Part shown: positions 2,919 to 64,000 of the stretch, piece after piece
Position numbering within the stretch: position 1 is the first letter of the stretch
How the letters are laid out: every line of letters starts with the position of its first letter
Source: an uncultured Chloroflexia bacterium
GTDB lineage: Bacteria; Chloroflexota; Limnocylindria; QHBO01
Length of the DNA: 64,000 nt
Direction of reading: 5' to 3'
NCBI GenBank assembly: GCA_963805305.1
Contig: CAWDTM010000008.1
Location: forward strand, 328,317-392,316
Program-made: the position numbers and the translations under genes
The notes under the pieces: model-generated
Seen by the model: only the letters and a program-made list of their open reading frames with translations
Database searches by the model: none
What the model was told of the DNA's origin: nothing

Positions 2919-3125
2919 AGGTCATGCTCCAACCGGCTGCGGTGCCAAACGACACCACGCCATCGGTAGGGTACGGACCGGCGGCACTGAATCTCAATGG
3001 CGCATTCGTACCCCTGCGGTCACCCCGCAGCGGGCATCGCACATGCCTCGGGTGGGACGCTAGACTCACATCCTGCCGGCGCTGCGCTTCATGACTGCGG
3101 CTCCGGCGGGTCGGAAGGAGGGCCC

Positions 3126-4076
3126 GTGTTCGGTCGCCGCAGGCGCAAGGAGGAGGCGGAGGAGTCCGCCCGCGAAGCCGAGCGCCGAGCGTTGTTCGCC
3201 GAGCTGGCGAAGCGACCGGAGTCCGTCTGCCCGTTCCTGGGCCTTGCCGATGCTCGGGCCGAGTACCGGCCCGAACCCAACGGCGGGCATCGCTGCTACG
3301 CGTTCGGTGATCCTGCCCCGCTCTCCGATGAGCAGCAGCGCCACGTGTGCCTGGAGCGCGGGTACTCGAACTGCCCCCGCTACCTGCGCGGTGTGCTGGT
3401 CATTCCCAGCGAGGAGCTCGAGGCGCTCCGACGGCCGCAGGCTCCCGCTCCGCCTCCGCCGCCACGGCCCGCGCCCGCATCCGGCGGTGGCGGTGGCCGT
3501 GGCCGTGGACTGGCGCTGGTTGGCGTCCTGCTGATCCTGGTCGCGGCGGTCGGCGTCGGCGGCTGGTACCTCCTGGGCAACCGGGGCAACGGTATCGCGG
3601 ACAACCCCACGAGCTCCCCGACGGCCACGCCCGCCGCCACCCAGTCAACCGCGCCCGCAGAGACTCCCATCGCGACGCCCGTGGCGACCCCTTCGGCGTC
3701 GGCCAGCCGGGCACCGACTCCGACTCCGGAGCCGACACCGGAAGCCAGTGACCGGTTCGACCACTACGAGGTGGGCGTTGGCCCAACGCGCTACACGCTC
3801 TTCACCGTCGATCCGCAGAAGGGGATCACCGGGTCTCGGGGCATCACCTTCGGCGCCTTCTCCCGCGCGCCGGTGCAGCCGTTCAAGGCCGCCAACGGCC
3901 TCGTCTACTGGCAGACCAGCGAGGGCGACCTGACGGGCTACGCCTACGTGTACGGTCAGTCGGGCGACTTCCAGCTGCGCGAGGTCTTCCTCACCCCGCA
4001 GGGCGCGCGGCGCGTCGTGCTCATGACCGCCGCGCAGGCCACGACCCTCCCGGCAGCGACACCCGCTCCGCGCTGA
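3126..4076 (+). CDS. Hypothetical single-pass membrane protein with an N-terminal cytoplasmic Cys/His cluster, a Pro/Thr-rich linker and a C-terminal extracytoplasmic domain
   Basis: Strong RBS GGAAGGAGGG 5 nt before GTG 3126. The N-terminus carries CPFLGL...HRCYAF...HVCLERGYSNCPRYL, followed by a TM helix (LALVGVLLILVAAVGVGGWYLLG) and a PTAT-rich low-complexity stretch. It lies directly upstream of mraZ. Confidence 0.6.
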   Translation: MFGRRRRKEEAEESAREAERRALFAELAKRPESVCPFLGLADARAEYRPEPNGGHRCYAFGDPAPLSDEQQRHVCLERGYSNCPRYLRGVLVIPSEELEALRRPQAPAPPPPPRPAPASGGGGGRGRGLALVGVLLILVAAVGVGGWYLLGNRGNGIADNPTSSPTATPAATQSTAPAETPIATPVATPSASASRAPTPTPEPTPEASDRFDHYEVGVGPTRYTLFTVDPQKGITGSRGITFGAFSRAPVQPFKAANGLVYWQTSEGDLTGYAYVYGQSGDFQLREVFLTPQGARRVVLMTAAQATTLPAATPAPR

Positions 4077-4170
4077 CCCGGCCGCCCCTGGGCGGGCATC
4101 CGTTCGCGGACTAGCGCCGACCTCCGGCGCCCCCGGTACGAAGGTCCCACGATCGCTGCGCCGATTTCCC

Positions 4171-4198
4171 TTGACGGGCAGCGCCTGCCCTGTAGAAT
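4171..4198 (+). promoter_or_regulatory. Pmra promoter candidate (-35 TTGACG 4171-4176, 16-nt spacer, -10 TAGAAT 4193-4198)
   Basis: Near-consensus hexamers about 55 nt upstream of the mraZ ATG. Confidence 0.5.
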
Positions 4199-4207
4199 GG
4201 CGGCCTG

Positions 4208-4243
4208 TGGGTCCAAATGGGGCCAAATGGGGAAGAGTGGTGG
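4208..4243 (+). promoter_or_regulatory. MraZ-type operator: four direct repeats (TGGGT / TGGGG / TGGGG / TGGTGG) at exact 10-bp periodicity
   Basis: gTGGGTccaaaTGGGGccaaaTGGGGaagagTGGTGG lies between the -10 and the mraZ start. This matches the spaced GTGGG/TGGGN direct-repeat architecture bound by MraZ in E. coli and Mollicutes. Confidence 0.5.
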
Positions 4244-4252
4244 ATCCCACGC

Positions 4253-4702
4253 ATGGCGCAGGCACCTTTTCTCACCGGTGAGTTCCGACACGCGCTCGAC
4301 GACCGCGGACGCGTCGCGATCCCGTCGCGCTTTCGTGCCCGTCTCGCCGAGGGGGCGACGCTGGCACGGTGGCTCGATCGCTGCCTGGGCGTCTTTCCCG
4401 CCGAGGAGTGGAACGTCCTGGCCGAGAAGATCCGTGCCCTGCCCATGACCAACCCCAACGCGCGCGAGTTCGCGCGCTTCATGTCCTCCGGCGCGGTGGA
4501 CGTGGAGCTCGATCGCCAGGGGCGTCTGCTCGTCCCGTCGTACCTGCGCGACTACGCCGCGCTGAACGAGGGCGAGGTCGTCGTGGTGGGGGCGCTGAAC
4601 CGCCTCGAGATCTGGGCTCCATCGGCATGGCAGCCGTACCGGACCCGGATCGAGGACGCGCCGGAGGAGCTGGCCGCTCACCTGGCCGAGCTCGGGATCT
4701 AG
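4253..4702 (+). CDS. mraZ: Transcriptional regulator MraZ
   Basis: Two MraZ/SpoVT-AbrB-type repeats are present (FLTGEFRHALDDRGRVAIPSRFR and VELDRQGRLLVPSYLR). It is the first gene of the dcw cluster. Confidence 0.9.
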   Translation: MAQAPFLTGEFRHALDDRGRVAIPSRFRARLAEGATLARWLDRCLGVFPAEEWNVLAEKIRALPMTNPNAREFARFMSSGAVDVELDRQGRLLVPSYLRDYAALNEGEVVVVGALNRLEIWAPSAWQPYRTRIEDAPEELAAHLAELGI

Positions 4703-4783
4703 GGCGCGCAACGCCATGACGCACGTTGCGCAGACCCCATTCATGCGTCTCCGGGCCGATCGGCCCGCCATCCGACCTGAGAG

Positions 4784-5749
4784 GTGCGGTCCATGGGAGA
4801 AGGGCACCTGCCGGTCCTCGTCGAGGAGGTTCTCGCCCTGCTCGACGTGCGGACGGGTAGCTCCGTGGCCGACTGCACGGTCGGAGGCGGTGGGCACGCC
4901 GAGCGGCTTCTGGAGACGACGTCACCGCATGGTCGCCTGCTCGGCCTCGACGCCGATCGGGCGGCCATCGCGGAGGCGTCACGCCACCTGGCGCGGTTCG
5001 GCGACCGCGTCGAGCTGCGCCAGGCCAACTTCTCGTCCATCCTCGACGAGGCCGCCACGACGGGCTTCCTGCCGCTCGACGCCGTCCTCTTCGACCTGGG
5101 CCTCTCGAGCTACCAGCTTGCCGATCCCGCGCGAGGCTTCAGCTTCGGGTCCGAATCGGCCCCGGACATGAGATTCGATGAAGAAGCAGGACTCTCCGCC
5201 CTCGACCTCATCGACGCGACCTCGGAACGAGAGCTCGCCGGAATCATCGCGACGTTTGGTGAGGAACGCCGTGCAGGCCGCATCGCGAAGGCGATCCTGG
5301 CGGCGCGCCAGGAAGGTCGCCTCGTGAGTGCCGCCGACCTGGCCGCCGTGGTCGCGTCCGCGGTCGGGCGGCGGGGGCCCGCCGACGCACGCCGCATCCA
5401 CCCAGCAACGCGCACCTTCCAGGCCTTGCGCATCGCGGTCAACCGGGAGATGGAGGTCCTTGGGGCGGGGCTCGCCGGGGCGCTGGCCGCACTCCGCCCG
5501 GGCGGCCGCCTGGCGGTCATCAGCTACCACTCCGGCGAGGACCGCATCGTCAAGCGCTTCATCGCGCGCGAGGGCCGTGACTGCATCGAGGATCCGTTGC
5601 CGCCGGTCTGCACCTGCGGCCACCGGGCGCAGCTGCGCCCGATCACCAAGGGCGCCGCGACGCCGACCGAAGCCGAGGTCGGCCGAAACCGCCGAGCCCG
5701 CAGCGCACGGCTGCGGGTGGCCGAGAAGCTCGCCCCGCTGGGCGCGTGA
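4784..5749 (+). CDS. rsmH: 16S rRNA (cytosine1402-N4)-methyltransferase RsmH (MraW)
   Basis: HLPVLVEEVL, DCTVGGGGHAE, FDLGLSSYQLADPARGF and ISYHSGEDRIVKRF are RsmH hallmarks. The start may be GTG 4784 or ATG 4793. Confidence 0.9.
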   Translation: MRSMGEGHLPVLVEEVLALLDVRTGSSVADCTVGGGGHAERLLETTSPHGRLLGLDADRAAIAEASRHLARFGDRVELRQANFSSILDEAATTGFLPLDAVLFDLGLSSYQLADPARGFSFGSESAPDMRFDEEAGLSALDLIDATSERELAGIIATFGEERRAGRIAKAILAARQEGRLVSAADLAAVVASAVGRRGPADARRIHPATRTFQALRIAVNREMEVLGAGLAGALAALRPGGRLAVISYHSGEDRIVKRFIAREGRDCIEDPLPPVCTCGHRAQLRPITKGAATPTEAEVGRNRRARSARLRVAEKLAPLGA

Positions 5750-5760
5750 GAGGAGGCATC

Positions 5761-5970
5761 ATGAGCCGAGGGAAACCACGACACCAGGCAAGCCGACGGC
5801 GCACGTACAGCGTGCGGCAGCGCGAGCTCCGCGACCGCCGCACGCGGGCCATTACCGAGGACCGTCGCTGGCTCGAGGAGAGCGTGGCGTTCGAGATCGA
5901 GGAGGGGCTTGACTTCGAGTCGCCGACCTCGTGGGGGGTCAGGCTGCACGGCCGCCCCACGGCCGCCTGA
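5761..5970 (+). CDS. Hypothetical small, highly basic protein (69 aa) inserted between rsmH and ftsL
   Basis: GAGAGGAGG RBS immediately upstream of ATG 5761. High GC3. It overlaps the rsmH stop and ends 1 nt before the ftsL ORF. No known family. Confidence 0.4.
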   Translation: MSRGKPRHQASRRRTYSVRQRELRDRRTRAITEDRRWLEESVAFEIEEGLDFESPTSWGVRLHGRPTAA

Positions 5971-21999: not shown

Positions 22000-22076
<77 letters not shown>

Positions 22077-31447: not shown

Positions 31448-31834
31448 GCGCAGGAGCAACCCGTCCGGGTTCCGATTGAACCTTTCCGCCAGGGCCCGGG
31501 TAGCACTTGTGACCCGCCTCAGCGACTGGAGCGCTGATGCTTTCTTGACGTTACCTTATGCTCCGGACAATCATTGGCAGGCCCTACGCCCGGCGGGGCG
31601 CCTGCTGGCGCCTGCGTTCATGTCTTCGGAGCTGCCTTCGGGGCAGGGCCGGGCGCTATCGGACGGGTTGGGCGCTTCGCAGGTAGGAGAGGAGGTCACA
31701 CCGCGATCATCGCGCTGACGTCATGACGACGGTCGTCCGCGGACGCCCCTGACGGCGCGCGTGGCGGATTGAACCGATCCCGCCGCTCCTCGCGGCGGTC
31801 CCTTTGACGCCGTACCGGCGAAAGGACGAGGTGT

Positions 31835-58368: not shown

Positions 58369-59022
58369 ATGACCATCACCGCGCCGCCCGAGATGGAGTT
58401 CGAGCATCCACAGCACTGGGAGGATCTCCACGCCGCCTCGGCGGACCACGTTCGCTTCGTTTACGTTCCGTACCGCCGATATCTCAGCCTCGACGGGGTC
58501 GCGCGACCGGGCTCGGAAGCCTTCCAGGCCGCGATCGGGACCCTCTACGCCGTCGGGTACACGCTGCACTTCGCCCTGAAATCTCGCGGCGTCAACGCGC
58601 CGGTCGGAGTGCTCGAGGGCGTCTACTGGATCGACCAGCCCGGACCCATCCCGCTCGAGCGCTTCGCGGCCACCCGGGACACGCCAATGCGCTGGAGGCT
58701 GCTGCTGGTGGCACCCGAGGAGGCCACCGAGGAGGAGATCGACGGGGCAAGGGCGGAGGTCGCCCGTCGCGGCACCGCACCCGAAGCGCTGCTGGCGCAG
58801 CTTGCGTGCCGTGGCTGGCTGGAAGGTGAATGTGCCCAGGTCCTGCATGTCGGGTCCTACGATGCGGAATATCCGACCGAGGTGCGCGTGCACGCGGCAA
58901 TGGCGGGGGCCGGGCTGCGGCCGCGGGGCTGCCACCACGAGATCTACCTGAGCTCGCCCTCCGCGCCACCCGAGCGCACCCGCACGATCATCAGGCAGCC
59001 GGTCGAGGAGATCGCCTGGTAG
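58369..59022 (+). CDS. GyrI-like small-molecule-binding domain protein
   Basis: The C-terminal ...HEIYLSSPSAPPERTRTIIRQPV is the characteristic GyrI-like/SbmC ending. Confidence 0.6.
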   Translation: MTITAPPEMEFEHPQHWEDLHAASADHVRFVYVPYRRYLSLDGVARPGSEAFQAAIGTLYAVGYTLHFALKSRGVNAPVGVLEGVYWIDQPGPIPLERFAATRDTPMRWRLLLVAPEEATEEEIDGARAEVARRGTAPEALLAQLACRGWLEGECAQVLHVGSYDAEYPTEVRVHAAMAGAGLRPRGCHHEIYLSSPSAPPERTRTIIRQPVEEIAW

Positions 59023-59281
59023 CTCGACCCGCGTCGGCAGATCATGACGGAATATGGCAGGTTCGGCGTTCACACTGTCGGCATAGCCGACAGAGCGAGG
59101 ATGAGCCGAACCATGTACTCAAGCGAGCTGTTCCACCTGATGGCCGACGAGCGCGAGCGCGAGGTCCGTCACCTGCTGAAGGTGCGGGCCCTGCTCGCCG
59201 GCCCTTGCCGCGATCGCTCGACCATCGCGGCGCCACCCCGTGAGCGCAGGGCGCGCGGCCGATGAGCGGTTGCACCCACCG

Positions 59282-60256
59282 CTAGGTCGAAGCGCCATGA
59301 CGAGCCAGCGAGCCGCGGGCCAGGTCACCGACCTCGGTTCGCAGTTCGGCTGGCTCGACGACCTCCAAGGCCCCCCCCATCCCGACCAGGCGCGCCGCCG
59401 CGTCGCGTGGCCAGTCCACGGAGAGTCGCAGCCGCTGCCAGCCCTCGGGATCGCCCTCGTTCGGGAGCTGCTCGGCCCCGTCGACGGCACCACCCCCCAC
59501 CAGCGTGGCCAGGAGCCCGAGCTGTTCCGGATCCACGCGGATGATGACCTCGATACGGGGAAGGTCACGCTCGTACGCGGCCGTCGAGGCGGCCCAGTAA
59601 CCGGCCAGATCGAAGCCGGGCGGGCGCTCGAACCGTTCGTCAAGCGCCTCGGCGTACTCGATCCTTGACACGCGATACGTGCGCGGGGCGCCATCGCGGA
59701 GAGCGACGAGGTACCACACGCCGCTCTTGAGGACCACGCCCAGCGGGTCCAGGATCCGATCCGGCTCCGCCGTTGGCTTGAGGTATCGCACGCGCAGCCG
59801 GCGCTGGCTCCAGACCGCCTGGGCCACGGTTGCCAGCTGCGGGGTCTGGTCGGCACTGCGAAACCAGCCGGGTGCGTCGAGGTGGAAGCGCTCACGGATC
59901 CGCCCCGCGCGCGACCGGAGCTCCGTGGGCAGGGCGGCAAGCAGCTTGAGCTGTGCCGTGGCGAGCACGGTACCCAGCCCGAGATCGGCGGCAGGGCCCG
60001 GCATGCCGGCCAGGAAGACGGCGCCGGCCTCGTCCATGGTCAGGCCGGTCAGCCGGGTGCGATAGCCGTCGATCAGCTGGTAGCCCCCGGCCGGGCCGCG
60101 ATCCCCGTACAGCGGGACGCCCGCCTCGGAGAGGGAGTCGACATCGCGGTAGATGGTCCGGATCGACACCTCGAGCTCCGTGGCGAGCTCGCGGGCGGTC
60201 ATCCGCCCGCGTGTCTGGAGGAGGAGCAGGATGGAGAGGAGCCGGCTCGATCTCAC
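59282..60256 (-). CDS. YafY-family transcriptional regulator (N-terminal HTH, WYL domain, C-terminal WCX domain)
   Basis: RLLSILLLLQTRGRMTARELATELEVSIRTIYRDVDSLSEAGVPLY (HTH_11) followed by a WYL region (GVWYLVALRDGAPRTYRVSRI). GTG start. Transcribed divergently from pcrA. Confidence 0.75.
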   Translation of the reverse strand: MRSSRLLSILLLLQTRGRMTARELATELEVSIRTIYRDVDSLSEAGVPLYGDRGPAGGYQLIDGYRTRLTGLTMDEAGAVFLAGMPGPAADLGLGTVLATAQLKLLAALPTELRSRAGRIRERFHLDAPGWFRSADQTPQLATVAQAVWSQRRLRVRYLKPTAEPDRILDPLGVVLKSGVWYLVALRDGAPRTYRVSRIEYAEALDERFERPPGFDLAGYWAASTAAYERDLPRIEVIIRVDPEQLGLLATLVGGGAVDGAEQLPNEGDPEGWQRLRLSVDWPRDAAARLVGMGGALEVVEPAELRTEVGDLARGSLARHGAST

Positions 60257-60427
60257 GGCTCCATGGTAGGCCGTGATCGTGCCAGCAGATGGCAGGAATG
60301 ATCGCGCGACGGAAACGCTCCTGGCTGATCGCCTCCCGCCCACCGGGTCCCGTGGCCGCCTGCATCCGCGGCGCGATCCTGCCGCGCGCCGCCGGAGCCC
60401 GGGGAGACGGCTAGAATCGGTGGGCCG

Positions 60428-62935
60428 ATGCCCGCCAAGCGCCAGCCCGCCGCCCCTTCCCACTCCCCAACGCACGCCCCGAGCGCGGCGGATGCCGCCC
60501 GTGCCGAGCGCCTGGAGGCCGTTCTTGCGCGCCTCAACCCGCCCCAGCGGGAGGCGGTCGCGCACATCAAGGGGCCGCTCCTCATCCTCGCCGGCGCGGG
60601 CAGCGGCAAGACGCGGGTGCTCGCCCATCGCGTCGCGTACCTCATCGCGGCCGGCTTCAAGCCGTGGCAGATCCTGGCGGTCACCTTCACGAACAAGGCG
60701 GCCAACGAGATGCGCGAGCGGATCGCCGGCCTCATCGGCGAGGAGGCGGCCCGCGAGGCGACCATCGGGACCTTCCACGCCGTCTGCGCCCGCATCCTGC
60801 GGCGAGATGGCAACGCCATGGGCCTGACGCGGAGCTTCACGATCTACGACCGCGCCGACCAGGTCGCGTTGGTGAAGCAGGTCCTGCGCGGGCTGGACCT
60901 CGACGAGAAACGCTTCAGCCCCAACGGAATGCTGGCGTGGATCGGTCAGCGCAAGGACGAGCTGGCCGATGTCGCCACCGCACGCCGGCAGGCGGCGAAC
61001 TTCTACGAGGAGACCGCTGCCCGCGTCTACGACGCCTACCAGTCTCAGCTTGCGGAGGACGACGCGGTCGACTTCGACGACCTGCTCATGCGGGTGGTGG
61101 TCCTCTTCGAGCAGCATCCCGACGTCCTCGCGAAGTACCAGGCCCGATGGCAGCAGGTCCTCGTCGACGAATACCAGGACACGAACCGCGCGCAGTACCT
61201 GATCTGCCGACACCTGGCCACGAAGCACCACAACCTGGCCGTCGTGGGCGACGACGACCAGAGCATCTACTCGTGGCGCGGCGCGGACCTGCGCAACATC
61301 CTGGATTTCGAGACCGACTACCCCGATGCGCACGTCGTGAAGCTGGAGCAGAACTACCGCTCCACACAGACCATCCTGGATGCCGCTCACGCGGTCGTCA
61401 GCCGCAACGAGGGACGCAAGGAGAAGAAGCTCTGGACCGACCGCGGGTCCGGGACGAGCATCACCGTCTTCGACGCGTACAACGAGTACGAGGAGGCCGA
61501 GTTCGTCGCCCGGCAGGTCGAGCGCCTGACCGGCGGAGCGGCGAGCGGTTCCATGACCCGCCTGCTCACGAGCCGGGCCGATGACGACGACGGTGCCCTG
61601 CGCTACGGCGAGATCGCCATCACGTATCGCATCAATGCCCAGAGCCGGGTCCTGGAGGAGGCGTTCATGCGCTTCGGGATCCCGTACCAGCTCGTGGGCG
61701 GCACCCGCTTCTACGAGCGGCGCGAGGTGAAGGACGTGCTGGGCTACGTCCGCCTGGCCCGCAACCCCGCGGACCGAGTGGCCCTGGAGCGGGTCATCAA
61801 CGTTCCGGCGCGCGGCATCGGCGACAAGACGGTCGCGGAGCTGCGGGCCTGGGCCGAGTCGCACGCGGTCACGCTGTGGGCCGCGGTCGAGGCCGCGGGA
61901 GAGAACCCGAACCTGGCACCGCGCGCCCGCGCGTCACTGGCGTCCTTCGTCGCGATCATGCGGCCGTTGATGGAGCTGGCCGGGAACACTGCCCCCTCGG
62001 CCGTCTTCGACGCGGCGCTGGAGCGCTCCGGGTTGCGCGAGGCGGTGAACGATGGGTCCGACGAGGGGACGGATCGCTGGGCGAACGTCATGGAGCTGCG
62101 CAACCACGCCGCGGAGTTCGACGAGATCGCCCCGCCGGAGGGGCTGGGGCGATTCCTCGAGGAGGTCGCCCTGGTCAGCGACCAGGACACGCTGGAGGAC
62201 AGGCCCGACCGGGTCACCCTGATCACCCTGCACGCCGCGAAAGGGCTCGAGTTCCCGGTCGTCTTCATCGTCGGTCTCGAGGAGGGCCTGCTCCCGCACC
62301 GCCGCGCGCTCGAGGACGAGCGGGAGCTCGAGGAGGAGCGGCGCCTGGCGTACGTGGGCATGACCCGGGCCAAGGATCGGCTGTACCTGATCCACGCGCA
62401 CCACCGCTCCACCTGGGGCGTGGGGGCCATGAGCGAGCCCTCCCGGTTCCTCGCGGAGCTGCCGGAGGAGCTCCTCTCGGCGGAGCGGACCAGCGCGCCG
62501 TCGCGCCGGGGATGGGGCGAGCGCCGAGGGGTGGACGACGACGGGGGCTGGCTGCCCGGCGGCTACCGGGCGCGGCGCTCTCCGCGAAACGAGCCCCTGC
62601 GGCCGGTGAGCCTCCCGGACCTGTCGGCACCGCCCGTCAGCCGAGCGGGTCGGGCGCTCGACGCCGCTCGTGACCGGGTGGCGAACGCCGGGTATTCCGC
62701 ATCCGAGGTGGACCTGGGAGCGGGGACCTTCGGCGCGGGCTCGCCGGCTCCCGGTGCCGGTGAGGCGGTCGAGGTGGCATGGCGGGCCGGCGACCGGGTG
62801 CGGCATCGGCGGTTCGGCGAGGGGATCGTCGTCTCCTCGCGGATCGTCAAGGGCGACGAGGAGGTCACGGTCGCGTTCGTCGGCCAGGGCGTGAAGCGCC
62901 TGATCGCCACGTACGCGGGACTCGAGCGGGAGTAG
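60428..62935 (+). CDS. pcrA: ATP-dependent DNA helicase PcrA/UvrD (SF1)
   Basis: Helicase motifs I (AGAGSGKT), Ia (TFTNKAANEM), II (LVDEYQDTN), III (VGDDDQSIYSWRGA) and V-VI, plus a C-terminal Tudor-like tail. Confidence 0.9.
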   Translation: MPAKRQPAAPSHSPTHAPSAADAARAERLEAVLARLNPPQREAVAHIKGPLLILAGAGSGKTRVLAHRVAYLIAAGFKPWQILAVTFTNKAANEMRERIAGLIGEEAAREATIGTFHAVCARILRRDGNAMGLTRSFTIYDRADQVALVKQVLRGLDLDEKRFSPNGMLAWIGQRKDELADVATARRQAANFYEETAARVYDAYQSQLAEDDAVDFDDLLMRVVVLFEQHPDVLAKYQARWQQVLVDEYQDTNRAQYLICRHLATKHHNLAVVGDDDQSIYSWRGADLRNILDFETDYPDAHVVKLEQNYRSTQTILDAAHAVVSRNEGRKEKKLWTDRGSGTSITVFDAYNEYEEAEFVARQVERLTGGAASGSMTRLLTSRADDDDGALRYGEIAITYRINAQSRVLEEAFMRFGIPYQLVGGTRFYERREVKDVLGYVRLARNPADRVALERVINVPARGIGDKTVAELRAWAESHAVTLWAAVEAAGENPNLAPRARASLASFVAIMRPLMELAGNTAPSAVFDAALERSGLREAVNDGSDEGTDRWANVMELRNHAAEFDEIAPPEGLGRFLEEVALVSDQDTLEDRPDRVTLITLHAAKGLEFPVVFIVGLEEGLLPHRRALEDERELEEERRLAYVGMTRAKDRLYLIHAHHRSTWGVGAMSEPSRFLAELPEELLSAERTSAPSRRGWGERRGVDDDGGWLPGGYRARRSPRNEPLRPVSLPDLSAPPVSRAGRALDAARDRVANAGYSASEVDLGAGTFGAGSPAPGAGEAVEVAWRAGDRVRHRRFGEGIVVSSRIVKGDEEVTVAFVGQGVKRLIATYAGLERE

Positions 62936-62970
62936 GCTCAGGGCGATAGCGACAGGCCGAGGAGGCGAGG

Positions 62971-63465
62971 ATGGCAGAGACCCAGGTGACCCCCGACGAT
63001 CTTGTGGCGGAGCTCGTCACCGCGCGCGACGCTTTCCGCGCCGTGCTCGCCACCCTCGACATCCCGCAGCGCAGCGCGGAGGAGCTGGTCGGCGACTGGG
63101 GGATCCGCGAGATCGTCGCGCACCTGGGGTACTGGGCCGGGCATGCCGCCGAAGCGCTGCACCACGCCGAGCAGCGACGAACCGACGAGTTCGGCGAGGC
63201 GGAGCTGGACGTCGAGGAGCGCAACGCCGTCGTGGCGCGGGTCGCCCGTGAGGGCGATCTGGCCACGGCAAGCGCGCGGGAGGAGGCCGCGTACGAGGCG
63301 CTCCTCGACCGGGTGCGCCGCGTAGACCCGGCCTGGCTCGACGAGCGAGTGGGGTATGGGGACAGCATCCTGCAGGTGATCCGCGACGACGGGGCCGACC
63401 ACTATCGCGGCCACGCCGCGGAGATCCTCGCCGTGCTGCCCGGCCGCAGCCTCGCGGACGCCTGA
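62971..63465 (+). CDS. DinB/ClbS-like four-helix-bundle protein (DUF1706/DinB_2-type)
   Basis: WGIREIVAHLGYWAGHAAEAL and the C-terminal DHYRGHAAEI His motif. Confidence 0.55.
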   Translation: MAETQVTPDDLVAELVTARDAFRAVLATLDIPQRSAEELVGDWGIREIVAHLGYWAGHAAEALHHAEQRRTDEFGEAELDVEERNAVVARVAREGDLATASAREEAAYEALLDRVRRVDPAWLDERVGYGDSILQVIRDDGADHYRGHAAEILAVLPGRSLADA

Positions 63466-63467
63466 TC

Positions 63468-63959
63468 ATGAGCGCCGACCGGCGGGACGCTCTGATCGCC
63501 GATCTCGATCACGCCCGGGAGGCCTTTCGGGCGGCGCTCGCCGACGTGGATGCCGACCTTGCGACGACGCCGGGAATCGTTGGAGCCTGGAGCGCACGCG
63601 ACCTCGCCGTGCACGTGGCCTTCTGGGCCGAGCACGGTACGGCGGCCCTGGCGCTGGCGACCTCCGGCCGGGGCGCGGAGTTCGACTACGACACGGGTCA
63701 AACCGATGCCATGAACGCCGAGCTCGTCGCCGATGCGGCCCGCATCAGCCCGACGGCGGCCGCGGAGCGCGAGGAGACGGCGTTCGCGGCGTTCCGGGCC
63801 GCGCTTGCCGGCCTCGATCCGCCACTGCTCGACCTGGCGCTCGGGAACGGTGACATCGTCGAACGGGTGGTTCGATACGACGGGCCGGACCACTATGCCG
63901 AGCACGCGGCCCACCTGCGCGCCTGGTTCACCGACGAGCCGGAAGCGGACGGCGGGTAG
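63468..63959 (+). CDS. DinB/ClbS-like four-helix-bundle protein, tandem paralog
   Basis: Same architecture: WSARDLAVHVAFWAEHGTAAL and DHYAEHAAHL. Confidence 0.55.
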   Translation: MSADRRDALIADLDHAREAFRAALADVDADLATTPGIVGAWSARDLAVHVAFWAEHGTAALALATSGRGAEFDYDTGQTDAMNAELVADAARISPTAAAEREETAFAAFRAALAGLDPPLLDLALGNGDIVERVVRYDGPDHYAEHAAHLRAWFTDEPEADGG

Positions 63960-64000
63960 GCGCGCTGCACGGACCGTAGAATCGACGGTGCATGGCCGAG

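Follow-up and report, generated by a model that had tools for sequence, protein, structure and literature searches.

The closest described relatives of the system treated here are SiwR, DriD and PafBC, transcription factors built from a winged helix-turn-helix (wHTH), a WYL and a WCX domain. SiwR (MSMEG_1359), found in Mycolicibacterium smegmatis, activates transcription on genotoxic stress and recognizes an imperfect palindrome of 19 bp located between the -35 and -10 regions (PMC10693628). The sites of DriD in Caulobacter crescentus overlap the position of a missing -35 element at a fixed distance from the -10 element (PMC13004042), and for the mycobacterial PafBC a -26 motif and sigma adaptation were described (PMC11804915).

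Here, a gene for a factor of this class is described in a stretch of 64,000 nucleotides from an uncultured Chloroflexia bacterium (Limnocylindria; assembly GCA_963805305.1, contig CAWDTM010000008.1, positions 328,317 to 392,316 of the forward strand), which is called the window in the following. The gene lies between the divergent helicase gene pcrA and a small convergent open reading frame (ORF). An initial annotation had proposed that the regulator controls pcrA and possibly the DinB-like genes behind it. The comparison of orthologous loci suggests other targets, as two copies of a 19-bp palindrome would place the regulator at its own promoter and at that of the small ORF. Stress regulation in Limnocylindria is little known, and the class, mostly uncultured, was abundant in the soil and freshwater metagenome matches obtained in this study.

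The Regulator Gene and Its Product

The initial annotation of the gene as encoding a 324-residue HTH-WYL-WCX regulator, divergent from a PcrA/UvrD helicase gene over 171 bp (60257–60427), proved correct. The Pfam domains HTH_11 (residues 5–60, E = 2e-16), WYL (141–203, E = 7e-19) and WCX (233–315, E = 2e-11) all scored above their cutoffs. The minus-strand frame ending at 59282 stays open far upstream of the GTG start codon (60256–60254), which is typical of DNA with a GC content of 70%. The reading from this GTG is the one matching the homologues, as M1, R2, S4, R5, and L6 are near-invariant among 25 of them. This conserved N-terminus and a -10 element 6 nt upstream of the start codon support the length of 324 amino acids. 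The public gene call P0001 begins at M19 and comprises 306 amino acids, which cuts the first helix off the HTH domain.

With the single sequence, the nearest solved protein was PafC (E = 2.7e-4), whereas the family profile of the regulator matched PafBC with E = 6e-16 and DriD over its full length with E = 1e-11. An AlphaFold2 (AF2) model reached a mean predicted local distance difference test score (pLDDT) of 74 and contains a disordered linker. Searching with this model, Foldseek returned DriD, PafBC, CapW, and BrxR in that order with a probability of 1.0, the top hit being DriD (8tp8, E = 8e-14), followed by PafBC (9fnd); the TM-scores are low, as the monomer model has a disordered linker. 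In the profile alignment, the residues Y158, R167, Y182, R192, Y194, and R195 of the regulator, which are invariant or nearly so within its family, correspond to Y168, R178, Y192, R204, W206, and R207 of DriD. These DriD residues contact single-stranded DNA (ssDNA) (PMC9186387). Of the six contacts conserved among DriD proteins (Y168, R176, R178, Y192, R204, R207) all except R176 are kept in the regulator, and the position of W206 is taken by the aromatic Y194.

The protein truly belongs to the DriD/PafBC/SiwR class of wHTH-WYL-WCX factors and is in itself an ordinary member of a large, known family. The initial annotation had also referred to WYL regulators of DNA damage responses. The match in fold and profile to DriD and PafBC and the retained ssDNA-contact residues speak for this class, and a regulator of the DNA damage sensor type is plausible; the interpretation as a whole was upheld only in part.

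Two Candidate Operator Boxes With the Same Promoter Geometry

Aligning the regions upstream of the regulator genes of the orthologues revealed a box with the consensus CCTGnCA-N5-TGnCAGG, to which box 1 of the window (Table 1) belongs, with a single mismatch to CCTGCCA-N5-TGGCAGG. In the orthologues, the box is followed by 9 nt, a -10 element (TACCAT or TAGGAT), 6–7 nt, and the start codon. The bases TA...T of the -10 element are invariant and the spacing is fixed across the alignment, in which no Shine-Dalgarno sequence was seen upstream of the regulator start. Because of the missing Shine-Dalgarno sequence and the -10 element 6–7 nt from the start codon, we infer that the promoter is leaderless and that the regulator mRNA lacks a leader. 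The conserved inverted repeat expected between regulator and pcrA is present, but it belongs to the regulator's own promoter. A generic repeat finder applied to 60200–60480 returned weak repeats only and missed the operator, which has arms of 7 nt with one mismatch and was revealed only by the orthologue comparison. A scan of 59000–64000 for sigma-70 promoters and terminators, which is ill-suited to DNA of 70% GC with promoters of the -10-only style, gave no result.

A position weight matrix (PWM) was built from 52 sites of other loci, with the window held out. In a scan of the 64 kb, the two best sites were box 2, located upstream of the convergent ORF, and box 1; a third site (31563) reached 12.7 bits and everything else at most 5.0 bits. 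A first-order Markov simulation predicts 0.11 chance matches per 64 kb at 15.2 bits or more. Box 2 is followed by a -10-like hexamer with the same spacing as at the regulator promoter. In the orthologous and related loci L081–L093, sites of at least 8 bits occur solely at the regulator and micro-ORF promoters. Among 92 related loci, a site was found at most 80 nt upstream of the WYL start in 66 and at most 500 nt past the stop in 39, whereas the 1.14 Mb contained only 15 further sites outside these positions. The counts are circular to some extent, since the training sites were chosen by a regular expression and the matrix was derived from a subset of these loci. The strict pattern TGnCA-N5-TGnCA-N10-12-TAnnnT gave 63 matches, 27 of them at WYL starts. 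The remaining ones are nearly all convergent micro-ORF promoters or, where the divergent region is short, the same palindrome seen from its opposite face. In metagenome contigs, at least 130 exact matches to CCTGnCA-N5-TGnCAGG-N9-TAnnnT were found; among those listed, 32 lie directly at the start of WYL-family genes and about 20 more adjoin WYL genes.

The third box-like site (31563–31581, CCGGACAATCATTGGCAGG) is followed on the minus strand by 9 nt and TAACGT, which is the geometry of boxes 1 and 2. It is located in a 390-nt gap (intergenic region 31448–31834) upstream of an SBP_bac_5 transporter gene. The site is not significant on its own, as 0.38 such matches are expected per 64 kb, and the ORFs flanking it have no Pfam match and an atypical GC content at third codon positions (GC3).

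Table 1. Features of the regulator locus and their positions in the window.
Feature	Position	Strand	Remarks
Candidate operator box 1, imperfect palindrome of 19 bp, CCTGCCATCTGCTGGCACG as read on the strand of the regulator	60278..60296	-	PWM score 15.2 bits; conserved in orthologues
Regulator -10 element, TACCAT	60263..60268	-	9 nt after box 1, 6 nt before GTG
Candidate operator box 2, CATGACGGAATATGGCAGG	59043..59061	+	Upstream of micro-ORF; PWM score 15.8 bits, best in window; kept in orthologues including loci without pcrA
-10-like hexamer, CACACT (orthologues TACGCT)	59071..59076	+	9 nt after box 2, spacing as at the regulator promoter
wHTH-WYL-WCX transcription factor gene	59282..60256	-	Pfam; AF2/Foldseek; profile alignment to DriD and PafBC
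Micro-ORF, 50 amino acids, MYSSELFHLMADEREREVRHLLKVRALLAGPCRDRSTIAAPPRERRARGR	59113..59265	+	Convergent with regulator; 16 nt between the two stop codons
Second, unrelated perfect palindrome, CTGTCGGC-ATA-GCCGACAG	59075..59093	+	Overlaps micro-ORF -10 and predicted start site
PcrA/UvrD-family helicase gene, 835 amino acids	60428..62935	+	Pfam UvrD-helicase, UvrD_C, PcrA_UvrD_tudor
pcrA -10 element, TAGAAT	60412..60417	+	10 nt before ATG; no box
Two tandem genes of the MDMPI_N/DinB_2 superfamily	62971-63465, 63468-63959	+	Pfam

Proposed Mode of Regulation

On this basis, the WYL factor probably binds both boxes, with the regulator and the micro-protein as its local regulon and without pcrA-dinB-dinB(-ligA) as a direct target. 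The regulator, probably as a homodimer, would bind the palindrome 9 bp upstream of the -10 element, in place of a -35 element, at two promoters: its own leaderless one and that of the convergent 50-codon ORF past its 3′ end. By analogy, it may act as an activator from the position used by DriD, SiwR, and PafBC, and ssDNA bound to the WYL domain may switch it on. In that case, damage or stress would induce the micro-protein as an effector, and the regulator would boost its own expression. Activation is favored because the geometry of box and -10 element is of the DriD/SiwR/PafBC kind and because the closest structural matches are activators, DriD and PafBC ranking ahead of the repressors CapW and BrxR.

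The same two operators and the same local regulon could also belong to a repressor of the CapW/BrxR type, which would occlude the -35 regions and be released by ssDNA or another nucleic acid. Such a repressor, which we regard as a tentative alternative, would fit the sequence data nearly as well as an activator. CapW is reported to sense ssDNA as well (PMC11662680), and both CapW and BrxR were significant structural matches. Palindromic operators overlapping promoters, together with autoregulation, are typical of wHTH-WYL-WCX repressors, and high-GC promoters often work by the -10 element alone, so that no activator is needed. However, the strict 9-nt spacing to the -10 element in dozens of promoters is the pattern of the activator-dependent promoters of DriD, PafBC, and SiwR, and the -10 elements concerned are weak (TACCAT, CACACT) compared with the TAGAAT of pcrA. 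In addition, DriD and PafBC resemble the regulator more closely in both sequence and fold than CapW and BrxR do, and no defense system adjoins the locus.

Several points weigh against activation from two local boxes. The direction of regulation is not readable from sequence, and repressors such as CapW and BrxR would be equally compatible with a site that covers the -35 position. High-GC organisms often have no recognizable -35 element anywhere, and the missing -35 is therefore weak evidence for activator dependence. In the window, the -10 element of the micro-ORF reads CACACT, the T of position 1 being lost. Furthermore, the close orthologue L081 has lost the micro-ORF, and the relative L214 has neither the two boxes nor the micro-ORF. 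The third, weaker site at 31563–31581 and the partial circularity of the counts in related loci count on the same side, as does the extent of the target scan, which covered 64 kb of the genome and leaves room for distant targets.

The Convergent Micro-ORF

A small ORF convergent with the regulator gene is conserved and was annotated by others in several orthologues. In the window, it has a GAGGA Shine-Dalgarno sequence 11 nt upstream of its ATG, both of which are conserved, and its GC content by codon position (0.75/0.55/0.84) is like that of the real genes of the window. Variation in the alignment is greatest at third positions, and the codons of the invariant R-E-R alternate between CGC, CGG, and CGT and between GAG and GAA. 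These features support translation of the ORF. Searching 5.8 billion proteins with a profile yielded 49 unnamed proteins of 46–76 amino acids without a Pfam domain, and an exhaustive search of cluster representatives found 132 members, nearly all of them 45–90 amino acids long, stand-alone, and matching from residue 1. The micro-protein consists of a charged N-terminal helix with the motif M-x-S-x-E-L-x-R-L-x-x-D-R-E-R-E-V-x-x-x-L-R-V-R, followed by a tail rich in arginine and proline.

The three most divergent members that were examined (L091–L093) are convergent or overlapping with an HTH_11-WYL-WCX gene, and both boxes are present, in a context unrelated to that of the window (a divergent DUF72 gene, no pcrA). 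In six-frame translations of all loci, the micro-ORF motif occurs solely at the position convergent to the WYL gene. No match to the micro-protein was found in Pfam, NCBIfam, or PADLOC, and together with the absence of any mention in the literature searched the micro-protein partner appears to be undescribed. It is the only part of the locus with some novelty.

It is conceivable, though unlikely, that the micro-ORF is untranslated and that the promoter behind box 2 makes a small or antisense RNA which extends over the 3′ end of the regulator gene and exerts feedback on this gene. The two genes converge with only 16 nt between them, in L091 and L092 their ends even overlap by 4 nt, the scan of 59000–64000 found no canonical terminator, and the 5′ end of the transcript would carry a conserved palindrome resembling a stem-loop. 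Against an RNA as the only product stand the conservation at the peptide level, the synonymous third-position changes in the R-E-R codons, and the gene-like GC3, as well as the conserved Shine-Dalgarno sequence and ATG, the consistent frame of 45–90 amino acids in 132 clusters, and the lack of a match in Rfam. An RNA role and a translated micro-ORF are not mutually exclusive.

The stem-loop-like element is the second palindrome of Table 1, which is unrelated to the boxes. It is unique in the window; 10 related loci have it at the same position and nowhere else, and L001 shows a compensatory change. As RNA, it folds with -13.6 kcal/mol (z = -3.3). It may represent a 5′ stem-loop or an operator for a different protein, but the predicted start site falls inside it. 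A hairpin between the two convergent stop codons was no better than in shuffled sequence. Rfam contained nothing relevant for 58800–60600 (E up to 1) or for the whole window (gathering threshold).

The Neighboring pcrA and DinB-Like Genes

Among the UvrD-family models of NCBIfam, the helicase was best matched by pcrA (TIGR01073) with 862.5 bits against a cutoff of 911.2 bits, and the Tudor domain is present. The pcrA mRNA seems to be leaderless or nearly so, because TAGAAT lies 10 nt from the ATG and no Shine-Dalgarno sequence is found (60412–60430). Upstream of pcrA, only G-n-TAGAAT-CG and a short leader are conserved among seven orthologues, the rest being variable, and the best PWM score in 60300–60440 was -18 bits. 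The 35-nt gap between pcrA and the first DinB-like gene holds a GGAGG Shine-Dalgarno sequence only, with no box and no -10 element, and the DinB-like genes are probably co-transcribed with pcrA. The orthologues have the same order pcrA-dinB-dinB, with ligA next. The label "ClbS-like", which the initial annotation had given to the downstream genes, found no specific support; Pfam assigns them to MDMPI_N/DinB_2. In none of the orthologous loci does a box precede pcrA, ligA, or the DinB-like genes, and none of the metagenome matches listed (at least 130) places box and -10 element upstream of a pcrA homologue.

The group pcrA-dinB-dinB(-ligA) is divergent from the regulator gene in orthologues with 88% (L081), 92% (L084), 73% (L086/L087), and 70% identity (L088–L090). 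In L082 (86%), a TPM_phosphatase-PspA pair is inserted between the two (2932–5794), with pcrA 3 kb away, and in L085 (72%) an ORF of 522 amino acids without a Pfam match (4396–5964), which is co-directional with the regulator gene and ends 36 nt before it, with pcrA 1.7 kb away. Box 1 stays at the regulator in both despite the insertions. At 68%, 66%, and 65% identity (L083, L214, L215) pcrA is absent. It does not adjoin the regulator gene in any of 80 genome loci of homologues with 50–60% identity (Chloroflexota, Actinobacteria), nor in these three loci or in L091–L093, which amounts to 0 of 86. One Amycolatopsis locus of the 80 has distant UvrD-like matches downstream, and DinB-like genes were not found beside the regulator in any of them. 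The neighboring ORFs in these 80 loci were called by a crude GC3 method, which is unreliable for many of them, and the analysis was restricted to the clear cases. The opposite flank is syntenic as well in the close clade (...PAP2-groEL-groES-tatD-metG). Because both flanks (ligA...groESL) are syntenic there, the arrangement seems to be an inherited block with insertions and deletions and not a selected pair of regulator and target.

Control of the divergent pcrA-dinB-dinB(-ligA) operon by the regulator, within a LexA-independent damage response, appears improbable in the light of these data. The box has its place relative to the -10 element and start codon of the regulator (9 nt, 6 nt), whereas its distance to the pcrA -10 element varies from tens of bp, with 115 bp in the window (60297–60411), to 1.7–3 kb in L085 and L082. 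Only TAGAAT is conserved in front of pcrA, the PWM scores there are negative, and the DinB-like genes have no box here or in the orthologous loci. In favor of such control, the divergent layout is kept in most orthologues with at least 70% identity, and the conserved palindrome lies within the shared intergenic region. Sister boxes seem to drive another repair helicase gene, lhr, and SiwR activates divergent genes of the DinB_2 family (PMC10693628). Nevertheless, the missing adjacency in more distant loci (0/80, 0/3, and 0/3) and the synteny of the close clade on both flanks point to inheritance and not to selection, and no pcrA homologue follows the box and -10 element among the metagenome matches listed.

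The link of the regulator to pcrA is most likely one of neighborhood only, and neither pcrA nor the DinB-like genes kept their place as proposed targets. The pcrA-dinB-dinB(-ligA) group would be a neighboring operon of the housekeeping type that has a TAGAAT promoter of its own. Had the target been assigned by adjacency alone, it would have been the wrong one. No literature was found on a pair of WYL and pcrA/uvrD genes or on the box CCTGnCA-N5-TGnCAGG.

Further Occurrences of the Box

In actinobacterial homologues, namely those of Nonomuraea (L030–L032, L041, L051, L052, L059) and those of L046, L050, L053, L067, and other loci, the palindrome lies in divergent regions of 40–60 bp. On their other side, these regions border on small genes of DUF3224 or of an unassigned family of 150 amino acids starting with MNDFDF. 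Other genes behind the box and -10 element, among the metagenome matches listed, encode glutathione S-transferases, an ATPase of the ATP-binding cassette type, a hydrolase, a luciferase-like monooxygenase, and an EamA transporter.

In two unrelated high-GC metagenome contigs, the box is followed by 9 nt, TAnnnT, 6 nt, and the GTG of Lhr-type helicase genes (DEAD, Helicase_C, WH_Lhr), which would be leaderless. These boxes are located on the minus strand at 766–799 (L142) and 3350–3383 (L172). Neither of the stretches analyzed contains a WYL gene, which suggests regulation in trans by a member of the family. In mycobacteria, lhr is a PafBC-dependent damage gene (PMC8682763). These lhr promoters speak for the proposed mode of regulation. 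The link of the regulator family to a repair helicase would be with lhr, not with pcrA, and outside the window, in which no Lhr gene was found. Finally, the window contains a bacterial class A RNase P RNA (2351–2673, 153.6 bits) and one tRNA (22000–22073).

The locus would represent a precise regulatory unit of one sensor and one micro-protein, with an operator at the promoter of each. More speculatively, the regulator and the convergent micro-protein of 45–90 amino acids may form an undescribed two-gene module triggered by ssDNA, which would occur across Limnocylindria and other soil Chloroflexota. The micro-protein could then be a damage-induced effector of the checkpoint or inhibitor type, similar to DidA in its role, with sister regulators driving repair genes such as lhr from the same box. 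Should an ssDNA-sensing WYL factor indeed have the micro-protein as its output, LexA-independent damage responses would gain a new family of small effectors.

Comparison With Known Systems

Defense systems were considered as a context, and PADLOC returned generic matches to WYL and UvrD helicases only. A Gabija GajB, defense-associated reverse transcriptase (DRT), or other defense helicase was rejected, as the PADLOC matches reflect generic UvrD homology and the neighbors are DinB_2-like genes and ligA, with no GajA/OLD partner adjacent. The pair pcrA-ligA forms a housekeeping operon in Gram-positive bacteria. The neighboring operon in the window is similar to it in its PcrA with a C-terminal Tudor domain and the gene for an NAD-dependent ligase downstream, but in this Limnocylindria clade two DinB_2-like genes are located between pcrA and ligA.

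With the repressors CapW and BrxR (PDB 7tb5, 9c5g, 7qfz, 7t8k), the regulator shares the architecture of three domains and the palindromic operator at its own promoter, which points to autoregulation. The matches are weaker (E = 1e-6 to 1e-8, 12–18% identity), and no genes of a cyclic-oligonucleotide-based anti-phage signaling system (CBASS) or of bacteriophage exclusion (BREX) are nearby.

PafBC of mycobacteria (PDB 6sj9, 7p5x, 9fnd; PMC11804915, PMC8682763) is the best sequence match in the PDB, its promoter element is located immediately upstream of the -10 element, and its ligand is ssDNA. However, PafBC combines two paralogues, either as a heterodimer or in a fusion, and recognizes the non-palindromic motif TGTCGG, whereas a single gene is present here. 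Membership in PafBC was rejected for this reason and for the absence of a TGTCGG "-26" motif at the pcrA and regulator promoters. Upstream of pcrA, TGTCGG-N8-TAnnnT is absent, the hexamer 8 nt upstream of TAGAAT matching poorly.

SiwR resembles the regulator as a factor of about 320 amino acids encoded by a single gene, with near-identical domain positions, the conserved WYL arginines, and a small local regulon. In both systems, an imperfect palindrome of 19 bp occupies the -35/-10 region of a promoter adjoining the gene of the factor itself, and genes of the DinB_2 superfamily are nearby. The palindrome of SiwR, TAGGACAGTTCCGGTCCTA (TAGGAC-N7-GTCCTA, deduced from the oligonucleotides of electrophoretic mobility shift assays), differs from CCTGnCA-N5-TGnCAGG. 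The target of SiwR is a directly divergent DinB_2/DUF664 operon, while the DinB-like genes in the window are 2.7 kb away behind pcrA and without a box, and the target with a box is the micro-ORF. Moreover, SiwR is found in Actinobacteria and the regulator in Chloroflexota. In this comparison of operator and target, the regulator is not demonstrably a SiwR orthologue.

DriD (PDB 8tp8, 9pfq; PMC9186387, PMC13004042) differs from the regulator in its operator ATACGAC-N7-GTCGTAT and in its dispersed targets, the proposed target here being adjacent and convergent, and the identity is about 22%. Its founding target didA also encodes a small protein, DidA, which is described as a cell-division inhibitor (PMC9186387); the micro-protein here is a charged helix with an Arg/Pro-rich tail. 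Nevertheless, DriD is the best structural match and aligns by profile over its full length, and in both systems a pseudo-palindromic operator lies over the -35 position.

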